24,000 nt of DNA from an uncultured Candidatus Saccharibacteria bacterium (GTDB lineage Bacteria; Patescibacteriota; Saccharimonadia; Saccharimonadales; JAGQNJ01): assembly GCA_964610345.1 (NCBI GenBank), contig CAZSVQ010000004.1, forward strand, positions 7,570 through 31,569, in the 5' to 3' direction. Shown piece after piece: positions 3,059 through 10,516 of this stretch. Position 1 is the first letter of the stretch, and every line of letters begins with the position of its first letter. The notes under the pieces are model-generated. The model saw only the letters and a list, made by a program, of their open reading frames with translations. It had not been told where the DNA came from and ran no database searches. A program made the translations under genes and the position numbers.

Positions 3059-5920
3059 TTAAGTTACCTTTTTTAATTCAATGAATAGTTCTGCTTTTTC
3101 AACAATGACGGGCAATTTGCTGTTACTCTTGTCGGCATTAACTATTACAGTTGTTGCTAGGGTTTCTTTGGCGATTTCTGCCTTGTATTCGATTATCGCC
3201 TTTTCTAGCTCAGTATCTTTGGTGCTAAGCACCAGCTCTATCCGGTCATCTACATTTAGCCCCGCTGTCTTACGAGTATTTTGAACTTGGCGAATTACCT
3301 CACGCATCATACCCTCACGCCTAAGCTCTGGTGTTATATCTAAATCTAATTTAAACTTTCCAGTTTTTACTGATTTTACATTCAATTCTTCTTGTAAAAT
3401 ATTATCAAAACTAAATATTTTGCCGTTATCTGGTATTGATACCGATTTTAACGGTTGACGTACTTTTATTTGATTATTTGCCCGTACACTCAAACCTTCA
3501 TTAACGTATACCCTTAAGTTTTGCATGTCAGCAACGACAAGCTCATTTACATCCCCAGCTTTTGGCCAGTCTAGTAAGTGAACTGACTCACCGCCTGTTA
3601 GTTTTATAAACAATTCTTCTGCCAAAAACGGCGTAAATGGCGCCATAACCATACTTAATTGGGTTAATACATAATGCAGGGTGCGGTAGGCATCGTTTTT
3701 GTCGGCATCGTCTCCACTCTTCCAGAATCGTCGCCTACTCCGGCGTACATACCAATTGCTAGCGTCATCAATAAACGGCAAAATTGGACGAACAGCATCA
3801 GCTAGCTGATAATTATCCATATTTTTTTGAACTTCTTTAGTCAACTGGTGTAATCGACTAACTATCCATGTATCTAGTGGATTGGTTAGCTTATTCGAGG
3901 GGTCGATTAAATCACCGTCGAACTCCCAGTTGTCGACTTCGGCGTACATTGTAAAAAAGTCATACATGTTCCAAATCATGCCTAATTTACGAGCAACATC
4001 ATTTAGATCTTTATCTTGAAGTACAAAGTTGTCTCCACTGGTTAGCGGACTACTCATCAATGTAAAGCGATAAGCATCTGCCGAGACTTTATCCATGAGC
4101 TCAACTGGATCAGTATAGTTTTTGTGTTTTTTACTCAACTTTCTGCCATCCGATGCCATTACAAAACCGGTACAGATCAAATTTTTATAAGGTGACCTAC
4201 CAAACAAAGCTACATTTACAGCCGTTAAGCTATAAAACCAGCCCCTTGTCTGATCGATCGCCTCAGTAATAAAATCAGCCGGAAAGCCCTGTTCAAATTT
4301 AGCTTTATTTTCAAACGGATAATGAAATTGAGCAAACGGCATAGACCCGCTTTCAAACCAGCAGTCCAGCACCTTGCCAATGTGACGCATCTCAACACCA
4401 TCACATTCAAAAGTTACATCCATCACCATTGGCAGGTGGTAATCGTCCAATTTTTTGCCGGTTTCTTTAGCAAACTCCTCATAACTACCAAAAACTCGCA
4501 CCACCTCTGTTCCATCAGTGCGGACACCCTTCCAAACCGGAATCGGCGTTGCCCAGTAACGGTCTCTGGATAAGTTCCAGTCTGGTGCTGATTCAACAAT
4601 ATTATGGAATCTACCTTCTTGTAGTGCTTTTGGCACCCACCTGGTTTTGTCAGTTGCGCTTAACATTTCGTGTTTTTGAGCTTGAATATCCATAAACCAA
4701 CTAGGATGAGCCCGGTACATCAGCTTTGTTCCGCAACGGTGGCAATGCGGATAATCGTGCTGAATATATTCAACCTTCAGAGCTCGACCCTCTTTTACAA
4801 GTGTTTTGGCTATCTCTTTATTCACTTCCCAAATATTTTGGCCAAGCCATCGCCCTTCGGTATAATGACCGTTTTCGTCAACTATAGACACAACTGGGAT
4901 GCCGGCTTTTTTACAAAGCTCATAATCTTCCTCACCATAAGCTGGTGCTTCATGAACAATTCCTGTGCCGTCTTCGGCAGTTACAAAATCTGCCTCTAAA
5001 ACAACATGAGCATCTGGGCCGCGGTTTTCAAATAGTGGGCTGTACTTTAGGCCAATTAGCACTTTGCCATGTATAGTTTTTAGCACTCTATACTCTAGTG
5101 GCTGGTGTTTTTCGTCTGTTAGTACTTTTTTTATTGCATCGGTTGCAATATAAAATTTCTTATCATCATACTGCACTAGCGAGTATTCAATTGCCGAGTT
5201 AACAGCAATCGCAACATTAGCTGGTAATGTCCATGGCGTAGTTGTCCAGGCTAATAAATACTCATCTGTATCTTCTATCTGAAAGTACACAAAAACACTT
5301 GGGTCGGTGTCTGTTTGATAACTATTTTCCATCGCCACTTCACTTTTACTAATTGGAGTAGCGTCTTTGGTGCAATAAATTAGGATTTTCTCGCCCTCAT
5401 AAATTTTGCCGGTTTCGTACAGCTCTTTAAACGCCCACCAGACCGACTCCATATACTCGTTATCCATGGTTTTATATGCACCTTTAAATTCTACCCAACG
5501 GCCAATGCGGTCTATTGTGTCTTCCCACTCGGTACCGGTTTTGACCATTGCCGCTCTGCAAGCATTTACATAGTCTGTGATGCTAATTTTTGTGCCGATT
5601 TCTTTTTTATTTTTAATGCCTAGTTGGTTTTCTACAAACACCTCTGCCGGCAATCCATGACAATCCCAACCCCACACACGTTCCACGCGCTTACCTTGCA
5701 TTGTTTGATAACGCGCAACTGTATCTTTGATTGTAGATACCAACAAATGACCGTGATGTGGTGTGCCAGTCAAAAATGGAGGGCCATCATAAAATACAAA
5801 GTTATTGTTTTTTGGCCGATTTGCAACTGATTTTTCAAATGTCTTGTTTTTTTGCCACTGCTTAATTAAATCTATCTCGTATTCAATTGCTCGTCTTCGC
5901 GTCCCTGATTTAAACTTCAT
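3059..5920 (-). CDS. ileS: isoleucyl-tRNA synthetase (type 2, eukaryote-like architecture)
   Basis: The protein has YDGPPFLTGTPHHGHLL (HIGH region), a WDCHGLP editing-domain context, the KLSKKHKN (KMSKS) motif and no C-terminal Cys cluster. The track start is 5932 (MEIKMKF). I prefer the ATG at 5920 because GGAG lies 6 nt upstream and this ATG overlaps the upstream TGA as ATGA. Confidence 0.95.
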   Translation of the reverse strand: MKFKSGTRRRAIEYEIDLIKQWQKNKTFEKSVANRPKNNNFVFYDGPPFLTGTPHHGHLLVSTIKDTVARYQTMQGKRVERVWGWDCHGLPAEVFVENQLGIKNKKEIGTKISITDYVNACRAAMVKTGTEWEDTIDRIGRWVEFKGAYKTMDNEYMESVWWAFKELYETGKIYEGEKILIYCTKDATPISKSEVAMENSYQTDTDPSVFVYFQIEDTDEYLLAWTTTPWTLPANVAIAVNSAIEYSLVQYDDKKFYIATDAIKKVLTDEKHQPLEYRVLKTIHGKVLIGLKYSPLFENRGPDAHVVLEADFVTAEDGTGIVHEAPAYGEEDYELCKKAGIPVVSIVDENGHYTEGRWLGQNIWEVNKEIAKTLVKEGRALKVEYIQHDYPHCHRCGTKLMYRAHPSWFMDIQAQKHEMLSATDKTRWVPKALQEGRFHNIVESAPDWNLSRDRYWATPIPVWKGVRTDGTEVVRVFGSYEEFAKETGKKLDDYHLPMVMDVTFECDGVEMRHIGKVLDCWFESGSMPFAQFHYPFENKAKFEQGFPADFITEAIDQTRGWFYSLTAVNVALFGRSPYKNLICTGFVMASDGRKLSKKHKNYTDPVELMDKVSADAYRFTLMSSPLTSGDNFVLQDKDLNDVARKLGMIWNMYDFFTMYAEVDNWEFDGDLIDPSNKLTNPLDTWIVSRLHQLTKEVQKNMDNYQLADAVRPILPFIDDASNWYVRRSRRRFWKSGDDADKNDAYRTLHYVLTQLSMVMAPFTPFLAEELFIKLTGGESVHLLDWPKAGDVNELVVADMQNLRVYVNEGLSVRANNQIKVRQPLKSVSIPDNGKIFSFDNILQEELNVKSVKTGKFKLDLDITPELRREGMMREVIRQVQNTRKTAGLNVDDRIELVLSTKDTELEKAIIEYKAEIAKETLATTVIVNADKSNSKLPVIVEKAELFIELKKVT

Positions 5921-6534
5921 TTTGATCTCCATGTTGAATCTTTTATGTCTTTTAATCTCTTTCCGTTATAGCTCCAGTAAGCCGCACCCTGATATGCTCC
6001 ACTTGAATTAAGTTGTCCTTTATCCTCATATACTTTATAAGTCAAAGGAGATAATTTCCAATTTTGACCCCCATATTCAACTTCTCGATCACCCGATACT
6101 TTAGCTACTATACTTTTATCGGAGATTAATTCAATTATGTCACCATCTTTCAGACCTATTTTATAAAAACTAAACAAGGCACCTTGTTTTCTGGTTTGAG
6201 TTATCTTGTCGAACTCATTTTCTTTATTAATTCTTTCCGGAAAAATTACTTTACCTTCAAAAGATATTAATAATTGTCTGGCTAGATCTTGATCTAGAGC
6301 AAACAATTCACTACTCCCGACTTGATGTTTATTAAAAATTTCATGTATCAGATCTTCTTTGTCGTCATAATCATTCAACTCAATTGCAAAAAATCTTTTT
6401 AAGCCAGCGACATTATAATATCCGTTAGACTCAAGAAATCGCATTCGATCTTGATAGTTTCCAGAGCCTGTTTTGCCAATTTTAATTAAGCCCGAAACAG
6501 CCGTTGTCATAATATAAACTATTCCTTTTGCCAT
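5917..6534 (-). CDS. T5orf172 / GIY-YIG-superfamily domain protein with an uncharacterised C-terminal domain
   Basis: The track ORF runs to 6621, but the ATG at 6534 has AAGGAG 10 nt upstream and begins MAKGIVYIMTTAVSGLIKIGKTGSGNYQDRMRFL. That matches the G-I-(V)-Y ... KIGKT ... R pattern of T5orf172/GIY-YIG N-terminal domains. The C-terminal ~70 aa (FSFYKIGLKDGDIIELI...WKLSPLT...YWSYNGKRL) are an unassigned small domain. I counted 197 G+C in 594 nt (33 percent) for 5941-6534. Confidence 0.8.
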   Translation of the reverse strand: MAKGIVYIMTTAVSGLIKIGKTGSGNYQDRMRFLESNGYYNVAGLKRFFAIELNDYDDKEDLIHEIFNKHQVGSSELFALDQDLARQLLISFEGKVIFPERINKENEFDKITQTRKQGALFSFYKIGLKDGDIIELISDKSIVAKVSGDREVEYGGQNWKLSPLTYKVYEDKGQLNSSGAYQGAAYWSYNGKRLKDIKDSTWRSK

Positions 6535-6564
6535 ATTAAAAGCACTCCTTTTACAACTTAAATT

Positions 6565-6780
6565 AAAAACACTTCTCTTAGATATCGGAATCCTCTTGTA
6601 TTTTAACGAGGACGGTACCATCCGATTTCTAAAAGAAGCGTTCTGTGTGATTCTTTTAGCACTTATTTACAAGCTATTACGGGCTTACCCGGCAAGGTCT
6701 ACTAATCTTACTAGGATGTTCTTCTTGCTGCTTCACGGTTGATAGCCGTTAATTTGCTGTTTTAAGCAAAACGCATTTAC
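6565..6780 (-). promoter_or_regulatory. T-box riboswitch leader with Ile (AUC) specifier and ultrashort Stem I
   Basis: Minus strand 6626-6584 reads AUCGGA|UGGUACC|GUCCUC-12 nt-GAGGAU|UCCGAU, which gives helix A1, a 7-nt bulge and helix A2. It matches AGGGUGGNACCGCG at 10 of 13 positions. Stem III is CUAAAAGAA-13 nt-UUCUUUUAG (6659-6629). The specifier hairpin is ACGG-CUAUCAA-CCGU (6749-6735) with AUC+A in the loop. There is also an F-box-like CCGUAA (6682-6677), and ileS lies downstream. Confidence 0.8.
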
Positions 6781-6786
6781 GCTTTT

Positions 6787-6816
6787 ATAATAACATATAC
6801 AGAGGTGGTTGAGCAA
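6787..6816 (-). promoter_or_regulatory. candidate promoter of the T-box leader (TTGCTC, 18 nt, extended -10 TGtTATTAT)
   Basis: On the minus strand, TTGCTC is at 6816-6811 and TGTTATTAT is at 6795-6787. The predicted start near G6780 is just upstream of the leader structures. Confidence 0.45.
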
Positions 6817-7083
6817 TTATAATTTATCTACATAAGCAGAAACGTCGTTGATCAAGGGTAAAGGCCTGCCAGACCATGCCCGCAAAAATTGCCCATCGTC
6901 AGATACAGCCACAAATGTTGGGTGATCCATCACCCCATAAATTTGAGCTTTGCTTATGCCCTCTGGCGAATCAATGTTTATTATTTCTATCTTCTTAGCA
7001 GTTCTATGCTCAAATTCCCGCACAAATTCCTCTGCTCCACGTGCAAATTCCGAATCTGGCCTATAAAACATTATCACTTTCAT
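6817..7083 (-). CDS. small thioredoxin/glutaredoxin-fold-like protein without any cysteine
   Basis: This 88-aa protein has the pattern KVIMFY (beta1), then SEFA where a CxxC would sit, then IEIINID, then HPTFV (cis-Pro position), then GQFLRAW. That layout resembles an NrdH/Grx-like fold, but the sequence contains no Cys. The fold call comes from pattern recognition only. Confidence 0.65.
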   Translation of the reverse strand: MKVIMFYRPDSEFARGAEEFVREFEHRTAKKIEIINIDSPEGISKAQIYGVMDHPTFVAVSDDGQFLRAWSGRPLPLINDVSAYVDKL

Positions 7084-7145: not shown

Positions 7146-9887
7146 TTAACTACAGCCAGTAGTGGATCCACAAGATGTACAAACATAACAACTGCCAGAA
7201 CGTTGAGTTTGGTTGCCACAGTTAAAGCACAGTGGCGCGTTATCGTCTTTAGAAGCCGACTTGCTGGCTGGAGCAGTCTCTGTTTTTGGCTCAAGCTTTT
7301 GCTGGTGGCGAACGCTCTCCGTAACCGACTCCTCGATCAACGTCGTTTGTGCCTCTGGCATATCAATAGATGCTAATCCAAGTTCCAGACGGTCATCAAA
7401 CGACAAATAATCTAGGGCCAATCTACGAACAATGTAGTCAGTTATCGACGTTGCGGTACGGATATCTGAATCATCGGTAATCCCTGCTGGCGCAAAGGTA
7501 GTTCCACGCAATGTTTTAACATAGCTTTTTAGCGGCACACCGTATTGCAAACCGTGGCTAACGCTAATCGCAAACGAATCCATCAATCCGGCCAAAGTAG
7601 AGCCTTGCTTTGATACGTTGATAAACAGCTCGCCTGGAGCGCCATCTTCGTATTCGCTAACCGTAAAGTATCCTTTTAAGTCAGAAATCCCAAAACGATA
7701 GGTCTTGCTATTACGAACGCGTGGTAACTTGCGCCTAACCGCACCTTTAACAATAATCTTATCTTCAATGGTGGCTGTAGTATTAGGTTCTTCTTTTTTA
7801 TCACCCTCTTTCTTGGCCATAGATAGTGGCTGAGCAACCTTACAATTATCGCGGTAGATTGCCACAGCCTTTAAGCCCAACTTCCAAGATTCAATATGTA
7901 GTTGCTCAACATCCTCTACACTAACTTCTTCTGGCATATTAACGGTTTTGCTAATTGCTCCAGATATAAATGGTTGCACAGCACCCATCATCTTTACGTG
8001 GCCCATGTAGTGGATAGAATTATCACCCATTGAGCAAGCAAAGACTGGTAGATGCTCTTTTTTAAGTTGTGGTGCACCGATAATAGTCTTTTCGGTATCG
8101 ATATAATTAACGATATCATCCACCTGACTCTTATTGTAGCCCAAGACTTTAAGCGCCCGTGGTACTGTTTGGTTAACAATATGCATGGTACCGCCACCAA
8201 CTAGCTTTTTCACTTTAACTAAACCTAAGTCAGGTTCAATACCGGTAGTATCACAATCCATCATCAAGCCGATTGTACCGGTTGGCGCAAGTACGCTAGC
8301 TTGTGAATTTCGCACACCAAACATAGTTCCAAGCTCAACCGCATCATCCCAAGACTCGGCTGCTGCACTCAGTAATTCCTCTGATACAAGGCTGGCATCA
8401 ATATTAGAAACTTCTTCGCGGTGCATTTTAAGCACATTTAGCATACCCTCTCGGTCTTTATGGAAACCACTGAAAGGACCAACTCGGCGAGCAATTCTTG
8501 CACTGGTAGCGTAAGCATGGCCAGTTAATAACGCTGTAATTGCGCCAGCTTGTGCCCGGCCTTCAGTAGAGTCGTATGGCAAACCTTGGGCCATTAATAG
8601 TGCCCCAAGGTTAGCATAGCCTATACCTAGCTCTCGGTAAGCACGAGCATTCTTGCCAATACTCTCGGTTGGATATTCAGAATAACCAACTAATATTTCT
8701 TGCGAGGTAAAAATAACTTCTACGGTGTGTTTGTAAGCAGGAATATCAAAACTGCCATCGTCTTTAAGATATTTAAGTAAGTTAATAGATGCTAAGTTAC
8801 AGGCTGAATTGTCTAGGTGCATATATTCACTGCATGGGTTAGAAGCATTTATGCGCCCAGCATTCGGCGCGGTGTGCCATTTATTGATTGTTGTATCAAA
8901 TTGCATACCCGGATCTGCACATTCCCACGCTGCATCAGCAAATTGGCGGAACAGCTTGCGGGCTTTAATAGTTTTAACTGATTCTCCAGTCTTAACTGCC
9001 TTTAAATCCCAATCGGCATCGTCTACTACGGCTTGCATAAATTCATCTGTTACGCGCATAGAATTATTAGCATTTTGATATTGAACCGAAAACGAATCTT
9101 TGCCATCAAGACTCATATCAAACCCCGCTTCTTGCAATGCCCGAGCTTTACGCTCCTCGATAGCTTTACACCAAATAAACTCCTCGATATCTGGGTGATC
9201 AGCGTTTAAAATAACCATTTTTGCGGCTCGGCGGGTCTTGCCGCCACTTTTAATAGCCCCAGCTGATGCATCAGCTCCACGCATAAAGCTTAGTGGCCCA
9301 GATGCCGTACCAGCACTTTTGCCTAATTTTTCAACTGATGAGCGAATTGGGCTCATGTTAATACCAGAACCAGAACCACCTTTAAATATCATGCCTTCTT
9401 CTTTGTACCAGTTTAATATTGCTGGCATGGTATCTTCTATTCCCAAGATAAAACAAGCGCTAGCCTGTTGCGAGCGTGAAGGCGCACCGATATTAAACCA
9501 AACCGGTGAGTTAAAAGCTGCTCTTTGTGTAGCGAGGATATATTTAAGTTCTTGCTTAAAATCTTCTGCTTCATCTTTGGTCTCAAAATAATCTTCTTGT
9601 AAACCTTGCCTTGTAATAGTGTCTGCAACGCGGTTAATCAGGTCTCTGAGTGATGTCTCTCGCTCCTCTGTACCTGGTGTACCTGTAAAATACTTTTGAG
9701 CTACGATATTTATAGCGTTTAGCGACCAACCTTCAGGAAAGTCAACATCGCGTTGCTCGAAGACGTATTCGTTCGTCATTGGATTTTTAATAATTGAGTC
9801 TCTTTTGACCCATTTAAGTTGGTCGTAAGCTTTTTGACCGGGCTTCGTAAAGAAGCGACCAACCCCTAGCGTAGTAGTTTGTCCCAT
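7146..9887 (-). CDS. nrdJ: ribonucleoside-diphosphate/triphosphate reductase, class II (adenosylcobalamin-dependent)
   Basis: This 913-aa protein has an N-terminus (FTKPGQKAYDQLKWVKRDS...NAINIVAQKYF) and core motifs (NPCSEY, SACNLASINL, GIGYANLG) typical of monomeric class II RNR. Its C-terminal tail is Cys-rich (CFNCGNQ...CYVCTSCGSTTGCS). A GAGGG SD lies 6 nt upstream. Confidence 0.92.
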   Translation of the reverse strand: MGQTTTLGVGRFFTKPGQKAYDQLKWVKRDSIIKNPMTNEYVFEQRDVDFPEGWSLNAINIVAQKYFTGTPGTEERETSLRDLINRVADTITRQGLQEDYFETKDEAEDFKQELKYILATQRAAFNSPVWFNIGAPSRSQQASACFILGIEDTMPAILNWYKEEGMIFKGGSGSGINMSPIRSSVEKLGKSAGTASGPLSFMRGADASAGAIKSGGKTRRAAKMVILNADHPDIEEFIWCKAIEERKARALQEAGFDMSLDGKDSFSVQYQNANNSMRVTDEFMQAVVDDADWDLKAVKTGESVKTIKARKLFRQFADAAWECADPGMQFDTTINKWHTAPNAGRINASNPCSEYMHLDNSACNLASINLLKYLKDDGSFDIPAYKHTVEVIFTSQEILVGYSEYPTESIGKNARAYRELGIGYANLGALLMAQGLPYDSTEGRAQAGAITALLTGHAYATSARIARRVGPFSGFHKDREGMLNVLKMHREEVSNIDASLVSEELLSAAAESWDDAVELGTMFGVRNSQASVLAPTGTIGLMMDCDTTGIEPDLGLVKVKKLVGGGTMHIVNQTVPRALKVLGYNKSQVDDIVNYIDTEKTIIGAPQLKKEHLPVFACSMGDNSIHYMGHVKMMGAVQPFISGAISKTVNMPEEVSVEDVEQLHIESWKLGLKAVAIYRDNCKVAQPLSMAKKEGDKKEEPNTTATIEDKIIVKGAVRRKLPRVRNSKTYRFGISDLKGYFTVSEYEDGAPGELFINVSKQGSTLAGLMDSFAISVSHGLQYGVPLKSYVKTLRGTTFAPAGITDDSDIRTATSITDYIVRRLALDYLSFDDRLELGLASIDMPEAQTTLIEESVTESVRHQQKLEPKTETAPASKSASKDDNAPLCFNCGNQTQRSGSCYVCTSCGSTTGCS

Positions 9888-9935
9888 AATACCCTCACTT
9901 ATATTGTTATTTTGATTTTTTATTTAGAGTTCTTG

Positions 9936-9977
9936 CTCGCCTATGTAGCTCTCCCAAAAAAGTTACTACAATGCGAG
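9936..9977. repeat. imperfect inverted repeat in the nrdR-nrdJ spacer
   Basis: CTCGCCTATGTAG (9936-9948) faces CTACAATGCGAG (9966-9977). This gives a 5-bp outer and a 5-bp inner pairing with a 17-nt centre. It could act as an RNA hairpin or as an operator. Confidence 0.4.
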
Positions 9978-10042
9978 TTCGTGAGCTCCCCACGATTCTT
10001 AATTATTTTAAGGACCCTGGAGAGCCTACTAAAGTCTTAAAT

Positions 10043-10516
10043 TTAGGCTTTAGCTTGCTCTGTTTGGTGTTTACGTATTTGTGATAATTCCCGTTCGAAG
10101 CTGGCAATATCCTTAAAGCGCCGATACACACTTGCAAAGCGTACATAAGCAACCTCACTAACATTTGCCAATTGATCCATTACCAGCTCGCCAATCTTGG
10201 AAGAAGATACTTCAGATTCTCCACAAGCATATAGTTGTTGCTCGATGTCAGAAACTATCTTTTCAAGTTGGACACTTGTAATTGTTGTCTTTTCACACGC
10301 TCTGTACAAACCACTCATTAGCTTTTCGCGGCTAAACAGTTCTCTGGTGCCATTTTGCTTAATAACCACTAATTGTGGGCGCTCAACACGCTCATAAGTA
10401 GTAAACCTATTATTGCATTTAGGACAAGAGCGACGACGACGAATCGATTCGCCTTCGGCAACATCACGCGATTCAATCACCTTAGTATCGTCATGTTGAC
10501 ACTGGTTGCATCGCAT
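10043..10516 (-). CDS. nrdR: transcriptional repressor NrdR
   Basis: The protein has MRCNQCQHDDTKVIESR...CPKCNNRFTTYERVE (Zn ribbon) followed by an ATP-cone. A GGAG SD lies 8 nt upstream. Confidence 0.95.
   Translation of the reverse strand: MRCNQCQHDDTKVIESRDVAEGESIRRRRSCPKCNNRFTTYERVERPQLVVIKQNGTRELFSREKLMSGLYRACEKTTITSVQLEKIVSDIEQQLYACGESEVSSSKIGELVMDQLANVSEVAYVRFASVYRRFKDIASFERELSQIRKHQTEQAKA

Follow-up and report, generated by a model that had tools for sequence, protein, structure and literature searches.

The minus strand of the window (the whole stretch of DNA analysed here, 24,000 nucleotides of contig CAZSVQ010000004.1 from an uncultured Candidatus Saccharibacteria bacterium) carries ileS, the gene for isoleucyl-tRNA synthetase (IleRS). 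Upstream of it there is a 282-base gap between the stop of an 88-amino acid (aa) open reading frame (ORF) at 6817 and the ATG at 6534. This gap, the leader analysed below, holds a genuine T-box of the ileS operon, which is conserved across Saccharibacteria and has been missed by standard annotation. A first-pass annotation of the same DNA had placed a T-box leader here, with an Ile (AUC) specifier in a short Stem I loop and in front of ileS, and this is borne out by an end-to-end Rfam alignment, a conserved AUC, synteny with ileS and covariation among relatives. The features of the locus, in the order of transcription, are as follows.

6787..6795, minus strand: putative extended -10 element TGTTATTAT, from the sequence and an upstream alignment of 31 sequences.
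6773..6775, minus strand: 5' strand UGC of P1, the candidate base helix of Stem I, within the conserved AAAUGCGUU; pairs with GCA at 6731-6729.
6753..6770, minus strand: extra 5' hairpin UUUGCU-UAAAAC-AGCAAA, between P1 and the specifier hairpin.
6735..6749, minus strand: specifier hairpin ACGG-CUAUCAA-CCGU, with AUC at 6743-6741 followed by the purine A6740.
6729..6734, minus strand: GAAGCA, in which GA is a kink-turn (K-turn)-like motif and GCA the 3' strand of P1; GAAGC is conserved.
6692..6728, minus strand: Stem II, with lower helix GCAAG/CUUGC, S-turn halves GAAGAA and (U)AGUAGA, and upper helix AUC/GAU.
6670..6691, minus strand: Stem IIA hairpin CGGG-UAAG-CCCG (6691-6680), F-box-like CCGUAA (6682-6677) and linker GCUU(G) (6674-6670).
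6627..6664, minus strand: Stem III, made of AAGUG (RRRxG), CUAAAAGAA (6659-6651), a 13-nt loop, UUCUUUUAG (6637-6629) and AA.
6584..6626, minus strand: discriminator core of A1, 7-nt bulge and A2, paired and covarying.
6560..6583, minus strand: putative terminator 3' strand AU-CUAAGAGAAGU (6581-6571), then G-UUUUU-AA-UUU; pairs with G6639-G6629.
5917..6534, minus strand: T5orf172/MUG113 protein of 205 aa, a PDC-S57 candidate defence gene (Pfam E 4e-6; PADLOC E 1e-55).
3059..5932, minus strand: ileS, isoleucyl-tRNA synthetase of 957 aa (Pfam tRNA-synt_1 E 7e-124, Anticodon_1, DUF5915).

First, the leader was recognised by search and by its relatives. RF00230 (T-box), the family that the first-pass annotation had proposed as a check, was the sole Rfam family with E<=0.1 in the window (39.5 bits, E 1.1e-5), and its alignment is full-length, model positions 1-219 lying on 6763-6583 of the minus strand. 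A 251-nt region of the leader folds with z = -3.96, and none of 200 shuffles folds as well. The source lineage belongs to Saccharibacteria and hence to the Candidate Phyla Radiation (CPR), a CPR-like genome having been guessed in the first pass: IleRS of the window is 62-78% identical to IleRS of 80 genomes, which are mostly labelled Candidatus Saccharibacteria, Saccharimonadales or Nanosynbacter, with one Nomurabacteria. When the leader was used as a blastn query, homologues were found upstream of ileS in about 45 of these 80 loci. Twenty-eight leaders were aligned with MAFFT (alignment A1, a name unrelated to helix A1), and the covariance model R1 built on this alignment gave 74 matches in 81 sources, namely the window and 73 of the 80 related genomes, never more than one per source. 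All of them lie on the ileS strand and upstream of ileS, with scores of 33-182 bits; the window scores 166.6 bits at 6547-6755. Among the seven loci with no R1 match, three have less than 700 nt of upstream sequence, the leader of L002 is interrupted and cut by the start of the locus, and L028, L042 and L066 gave no match in the 1.3-4 kb of upstream sequence present. In the genome labelled Candidatus Nomurabacteria (L078, JACKGR010000004.1), both IleRS and the leader (177 bits) are of the kind usual in the Saccharibacteria set, so that this genome may bear a wrong taxonomic label, or the leader family may reach beyond Saccharibacteria.

The R1 matches form the 74-sequence alignment used below. 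Stem III was left unpaired in R1, and the alignment of the 74 leaders was therefore not fitted to that helix. The ON structure (specifier hairpin, both helices of Stem II, IIA, Stem III, A1 and A2) is 94.4% paired on the 28-leader MAFFT alignment, with 23 compensatory pairs; none of 500 shuffles was as good, and sliding the partners by 1-3 columns left 33-52% paired. The covariation proposed as a test in the first pass, in A1, A2, Stem III and the specifier hairpin, was found in all four across related leaders. Is the gap then a chance or decayed T-box look-alike, or a part of a coding ORF (5917-6621)? Such a view would agree with a score under the Rfam gathering threshold, and with an ATG at 6621 that opens a 234-aa ORF through the leader. 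It is opposed by compensatory changes in all helices across 74 genomes, with IleRS only 62-78% identical to that of the window, and by the occurrence of the same leader in front of unrelated first genes. The 234-aa ORF was rejected, since its homologues in five Nanosynbacter loci begin at the Met equivalent to 6534. Covariation and homologue data have effectively refuted this view already, and it is hardly credible.

The discriminator and Stem III are the most regular parts of the leader. A1 (AUCGGA 6626-6621, UCCGAU 6589-6584), the bulge UGGUACC (6620-6614) and A2 (GUCCUC 6613-6608, GAGGAU 6595-6590, with a 12-nt terminal loop) are all where the first-pass annotation had put them, as is the perfect 9-bp Stem III at 6659-6629, which ends 2 nt (AA) before A1. 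The count of T-box consensus positions made at that time has to be corrected from 10 to 9 of 13 defined positions (CGGAUGGUACCGUC against AGGGUGGNACCGCG). On the 74-sequence alignment A1 is 100% paired with 4 of 6 pairs compensatory, and A2 97% paired with 5 of 5; variants of A1 include AUCGGA/UCCGAU, GUCAGA/UCUGAC, UCGAGA/UCUCGA, ACUGGA/UCCAGU and others. The eight contiguous pairs of Stem III are 97% paired on the MAFFT alignment and, on the 74-sequence alignment, 91-98% paired, six of them with compensatory changes. The purines before Stem III (A95, G96, G98) and those of the linker (A130, A131) are fixed or almost fixed. Both the RRRxG ("RAG")-Stem III-AA arrangement and the S-turn motifs have been described for T-boxes (PMC7583486, PMC11297988). 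The bulge reads UGGUACC in 68 of the 73 leaders that cover it, UGGAACC in three and UGGUAAC in two (L065 and L074). Bacterial tRNA-Ile generally carries A73 as its discriminator base, and position N of the UGGN bulge would pair with this base. In the window A2 is closed by G6613-U6590, and this G-U has been proposed as the aminoacyl (steric) sensor; across the 74 leaders the closing pair is GU in 48, UA in 12, GC in 7, AU in 4 and CG in 2.

Second, the decoding part is a small Stem I. The specifier hairpin was already read in the first pass as ACGG-CUAUCAA-CCGU at 6749-6735 with AUC followed by A, and the relatives agree with that reading. Every one of the 72 leaders that reach this region has AUC, which an automated search located in 70 and reading by eye in L049 and L064. 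The next base is a purine in 67 of the 70 automated cases, and the stem is 99% paired with 4 of 4 pairs compensatory on the 74-sequence alignment. The first-pass annotation spoke of an "ultrashort Stem I" like that of ileS T-boxes of Actinobacteria, which were reportedly treated by Sherwood et al. in 2015 and by Battaglia et al. in 2019. This term is right as to the short stem and the specifier in its apical loop, but the hairpin is not a bare one, having a base helix and an extra 5' hairpin. The base helix P1 consists of U6775-A6729, G6774-C6730 and C6773-G6731. In alignment A3, which covers the upstream and 5' part of the leader in 31 sequences, its columns 32/85 hold GC in 18, AU in 6 and GU in 3, with G-C turned into A-U in six genomes, and L078, L074 and the Nanosynbacter group have A-U or G-C in place of U-A at the neighbouring pair. 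P1 is proposed with moderate confidence, 79% of its cells being paired and some rows misaligned.

As for the extra 5' hairpin, all four tested pairs have changed on both sides among the 31 genomes. Its loop sequence is not conserved, and for this reason it is unlikely to substitute for the platform that contacts the tRNA elbow. P1, the extra hairpin and the specifier hairpin are predicted to form a three-way junction at the place where canonical T-boxes carry the Stem I K-turn. The junction has UGA/GA-type residues there, and the Rfam model aligns the GA of GAAGCA to the GA of the Stem I K-turn, so that a K-turn-like or k-junction geometry may be adopted. A distal T-loop platform for the tRNA elbow is absent from the window, the 76 distal Stem I positions of RF00230 being replaced by a 7-nt loop. 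Upstream of Stem I, a TATAAT-like consensus is found about 10-12 nt before the conserved AAAUGCGUU in most genomes of the 31-sequence alignment. The extended -10 element noted in the first pass is indeed read as TGTTATTAT at 6795-6787, with TATAAT-like boxes at the same distance in relatives, and the transcript probably starts near 6780. A generic sigma-70 promoter scan of the window did not report the leader promoter.

Stem II and the IIA/B element follow. The lower helix of Stem II has compensatory changes in 5 of 5 pairs and the upper helix in 3 of 3, and among the aligned leaders the S-turn halves AGAA and AGUAGA (UAGA) show little or no variation. In IIA, which is about 82% paired on the 28-leader alignment, the closing C-G never varies, the next pair forms in every case (as G-C or G-U) and the inner two are less regular. 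The linker GCUU can pair with the loop AAGC to give the IIB pseudoknot, of 3-6 bp across relatives. The partners vary jointly (AGC/GCU, CGC/GCG, GGC/GCC, GAC/GUC, GUGA/UCAC, AUUUGA/UCAAAU, GAGUA/UACUC), and the mean best match is 3.4 against 2.6 in shuffles, each case being weak when taken singly. The assignments of Stem II, the S-turn and IIA/B, which were tentative in the first pass, are borne out by near-invariant S-turn halves, covarying helices and jointly varying pseudoknot partners. The pseudoknot resembles the 3-bp linker pseudoknot reported for the ileS T-box of M. tuberculosis (PMC11297988).

Third, the expression platform appears to be a terminator that competes with Stem III, a point that the first-pass annotation had missed. 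In the OFF structure, G6639-G6629, which is about the 3' strand of Stem III plus two bases, pairs with C6581-U6571. The latter segment starts two bases after A1, and the helix runs on into A1, the bulge and A2. This OFF helix is formed in the minimum free energy (MFE) and centroid folds of the window and in the RNAalifold consensus of the family. Pairing was counted by alignment column, since a strict scan for contiguous pairing under-counts helices with single mismatches. By this count 93.6% of the OFF structure is paired on the 28-leader alignment, where 25 pairs are compensatory, and 94.8% on the 74 sequences, where 32 are. In the latter alignment the terminator base helix itself is 93% paired and 9 of its 10 pairs are compensatory. 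Where the shared strand has changed, each of its partners has changed with it: C>U at column 184 goes with G>A at both 160 and 246, changes at column 183 accompany those at 161 and 247, in the Stem III and the terminator partner alike, and in L020 all three strands have been rewritten with both pairings kept. For the window the energies are -20.0 (ON), -30.2 (OFF) and -36.6 (MFE) kcal/mol, OFF being about 10 kcal/mol below ON. Counting mapped pairs only, OFF is the more stable in 25 of the 28 genomes, by a mean of 4.6 kcal/mol. Directly after the helix, a run of at least four U is present in 69 of 71 leaders. The alternative folds thus share one strand with two exclusive partners, of which the OFF partner is the stabler, and the partner that is swapped is not the canonical one. 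From these pairings, a switch is suggested in which Stem III means read-through and the terminator extension means off.

Two other outputs have to be weighed here. The first is translational control, as in the actinobacterial short-Stem-I ileS type, with the alternative fold hiding the ribosome-binding site. The decoding module is indeed of the class III type, which has been described as translational, and in many relatives the start codon is only 25-40 nt past the helix, so that a bulky hairpin might hinder the 30S subunit. The Shine-Dalgarno (SD) sequence AAAGGAG (about 6551-6545), however, comes after the U-tract, and neither conserved fold pairs it. Across the leaders it stands 12-30 nt past the helix in no conserved pairing, its sequence and spacing vary freely, and the first gene differs between genomes, whereas the feature conserved directly after the helix is the U-run. 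Control by hiding the SD is thus unlikely. The second is the canonical switch, in which some other terminator or structure disrupts A1 and A2 and the long helix is a stabiliser or the terminator of the upstream gene. It would follow the rule that in all described transcriptional T-boxes the 5' strand of the terminator is made of the 3' halves of A1 and A2 (PMC7583486), and in two leaders (L057 and L074) the terminator does use up the 5' strand of A2. For the window and most relatives, however, the downstream sequence offers no complement to the 3' strand of either A1 or A2. Its only partner that is both conserved and covarying is the 3' strand of Stem III, and a -10-like box separates the leader from the upstream gene. 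The canonical arrangement is therefore given very little chance.

A few divergent relatives depart from this scheme. The partner of the downstream strand is the 5' strand of Stem III in L060 and L061 (GCCUUCUA/UAGAAGGC), and the 5' strand of A2 together with its loop in L057 and L074 (CGCCCC/GGGGCG-type); a U-tract follows in each case. The terminator seems to have been built in at least three ways within the family (on the 3' strand of Stem III, on its 5' strand, or on the 5' strand of A2), as if the platform had been re-invented with the sensor unchanged. That these divergent hairpins all end in a U-tract supports termination as their common output. For comparison, rplU, also in the window, is followed by a hairpin-plus-U terminator of the classical kind (2663-2644).

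Taken together, the leader very probably senses uncharged tRNA-Ile and controls read-through into the T5orf172-ileS operon, binding and termination being predicted from sequence. The proposal starts from what is observed, namely the two pairings, their exclusivity and relative stability, the U-tract and the position in front of ileS. On this basis the binding of tRNA, the discrimination of its charge, the displacement of a strand and termination may be pictured as follows. The anticodon GAU of tRNA-Ile would pair with AUC in the apical loop of the short Stem I, and Stem II with its S-turn and the IIA/B pseudoknot would support this decoding contact, as in class III T-boxes. Stem III would be transcribed and folded first, and A1, the bulge and A2 next. 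The free 3' ACCA of tRNA-Ile would pair with UGGU of the bulge between A1 and A2. Once uncharged tRNA-Ile is bound, Stem III and its purine string would lock onto the acceptor-bulge duplex, as in published discriminator structures; the newly made CUAAGAGAAGU could then not invade, and the polymerase would pass the U-tract. With no tRNA or with charged tRNA, the downstream strand would zip from the base of A1 and displace the 5' strand of Stem III. A1 would be extended into a long hairpin abutting the U-tract, and transcription would terminate. It has been reported that an antiterminator lacking Stem III shows no appreciable tRNA binding (PMC7583486), and for this reason the bulge that survives in the OFF fold would be harmless.

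Several points weigh against this reading of the leader. At gathering thresholds Rfam gave no match in the window, RF00230 reaching 39.5 bits where the cut-off is 93, and none of 14 relatives scanned with RF00230 reaches the threshold either. The shortfall is mainly due to the missing distal Stem I, and the curated cut-off misses every leader tested (the window and the 14 relatives). The first-pass annotation had held that a score under the threshold together with a lack of covariation in relatives would refute it; the score is indeed under the threshold, whereas covariation was found, and the latter overrides the former. No tRNA-Ile gene was found by ARAGORN in the window or the 80 loci, which gave one tRNA-Gly only. 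The three UGGAACC leaders (L057:3814-4000, L060:3440-3621, L061:3823-4002) keep the AUC specifier, and their bulges would call for U73 in tRNA-Ile of these genomes; about a third of leaders close A2 with a pair other than G-U. A generic terminator scan of the window did not flag the leader terminator, because it is too long and interrupted for the simple pattern of the scan, and the stem has an A/U-rich base. A long Stem I with a platform for the tRNA elbow is generally needed by transcriptional T-boxes (PMC7583486), and the present leader would have to capture tRNA quickly during transcription without it. The proposed mechanism draws on covariation and energetics and would keep A1, the bulge and A2 intact, unlike any described T-box terminator. 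Finally, an internal ileS promoter may exist inside the inserted gene.

The operon behind the leader deserves some description. The T5orf172 gene has the SD AAAGGAG 8 nt before its ATG at 6534, and its ORF end is overlapped by the start of ileS by 16 nt. From this overlap the two genes are probably co-transcribed, under the control of the T-box. ileS had been named in the first pass as the gene downstream; the specifier does fit ileS, but the T5orf172 ORF is the first gene and ileS the second. Homologues of the T5orf172 gene (GIY-YIG-like) stand between leader and ileS also in the Nanosynbacter loci L018, L021, L030, L031 and L079. Recent horizontal transfer of this gene was considered, and no sign of it was seen, its identity to the Nanosynbacter copies (66-71%) being about that of IleRS (70%).

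In other genomes the same slot is filled in other ways. ileS comes directly after the leader in 43 loci, and 30 of the 73 related loci, like the window, have 240-2,820 nt of other genes in between, all on the ileS strand (e.g., L024:1495-4001, L029:1214-4001, L037:3210-4004, L059:3315-4013 and L052:3393-4010). The contents are very diverse and include, besides assorted other genes, DUF4145 proteins, a GmrSD_N/HNH endonuclease accompanied by an EcoRI-type adenine methylase, inositol monophosphatase, GDSL hydrolase, and GNAT, HAD, NUDIX and NYN proteins. The hypervariable slot between leader and ileS looks like an insertion hotspot, partly a defence islet, in a riboswitch-controlled operon. One locus has an insertion in the leader itself. 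In L002:1-360, which is among the nearest relatives with an IleRS 77% identical to that of the window, an 84-aa GIY-YIG gene (59-313, Pfam E 2.6e-18) sits inside the A2 loop, flanked by a perfect 13-bp inverted repeat (GCACCUUUUCAUC/GAUGAAAAGGUGC) that lengthens A2, and the 3' strand of A1, the terminator strand and the U-tract are intact after it. Before ileS this locus also carries an EcoRI-like methylase, an HSDR_N-like protein, a GmrSD_N/HNH endonuclease and a CdiA_C-domain protein.

How does the leader compare with known T-boxes? The four-class scheme of PMC10482949 and later open papers were used for the class definitions. Class III ileS T-boxes are actinobacterial (M. tuberculosis, M. 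smegmatis, Nocardia farcinica) and have a short Stem I (PMC7583486, PMC10482949, PMC11297988). They carry the specifier in the apical loop and require the Stem II domain (PMC10482949), and they have been described as translational (PMC7583486, PMC10482949). The Saccharibacteria leader is like them in its ileS target, specifier logic, apical-loop specifier and lack of an elbow platform. The likeness extends to the Stem II S-turn, the IIA/B hairpin with a linker pseudoknot of about 3 bp, the RAG/RRRxG purines before Stem III, and A1, a UGGN-ACC bulge and an A2 closed by G-U. It differs from them in an output that looks transcriptional (helix and U-tract) with no SD sequestration, and in an alternative fold that consumes Stem III and leaves A1 and A2 intact. 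Other differences are the apical loop of 7 nt (YUAUCAR) against 5-6 nt in class III (PMC10482949), the extra covarying hairpin 5' in Stem I, and the host lineage.

With class I of Firmicutes (e.g., Bacillus subtilis tyrS; RF00230), the leader shares the domain order Stem I, II, IIA/B, III and antiterminator, apparent control at an intrinsic terminator, and a terminator stabler than the tRNA-free antiterminator state. Unlike class I, it has no distal Stem I (7 nt against 76 model positions; 39.5 bits against 93), and the 5' strand of its terminator is the 3' strand of Stem III instead of the 3' halves of A1 and A2. A third likeness is to attenuators and riboswitches with three-strand competition, for UUCUUUUAG has two exclusive partners, the downstream one being stabler and terminating. 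Unlike in those, the ligand pocket (the T-box bulge) is present in both folds, and what is exchanged is an accessory helix needed by the ligand complex. By its predicted structure the leader is a T-box in the broad sense, since all structural hallmarks tested are present; its Rfam score is below the cut-off. It is neither class I nor a typical class III.

Whether it stands for a distinct, so far unrecognised T-box class, with a class III-type decoder, a Stem III-invading terminator that keeps the pocket, and an ileS junction that is a landing site for defence or selfish genes, is a proposal with slightly less than an even chance. If it is true, a transcriptional T-box would not need a tRNA-elbow platform, and PDC-S57/T5orf172, restriction-modification systems and GIY-YIG genes would be expressed under isoleucine-starvation control. 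In a literature search, mostly of open papers, no paper linking T-boxes with Saccharibacteria, Patescibacteria or CPR was found, and the short-Stem-I model of TBDB has been applied only to Actinobacteria and Rfam-detected hits. The leaders extend the range of T-boxes to CPR and indicate that a curated Rfam threshold can miss a lineage-wide family, and they challenge the rule that transcriptional T-boxes have a long, elbow-binding Stem I. A switching logic in which the pocket is kept and an accessory helix exchanged may be of use in riboswitch engineering. Saccharibacteria are now genetically tractable, and riboswitch-based control of expression has been called for (PMC11665869); a native tRNA-responsive leader would be a ready-made part, and a reporter of amino-acid supply from the host. 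Defence genes repeatedly found behind the leader raise the question of a coupling between starvation signalling and phage defence.

The surroundings of the leader were also inspected. At the thresholds used, neither Pfam nor PADLOC gave a match for the 88-aa ORF at 6817-7083 of the minus strand, previously called Trx-fold. The minus strand at 7146-10516 encodes a ribonucleotide reductase of class II (B12-dependent), which contains a TSCPD domain and lies shortly after nrdR in the same orientation, and FtsZ lies further upstream, so that the neighbourhood is one of ordinary housekeeping genes.

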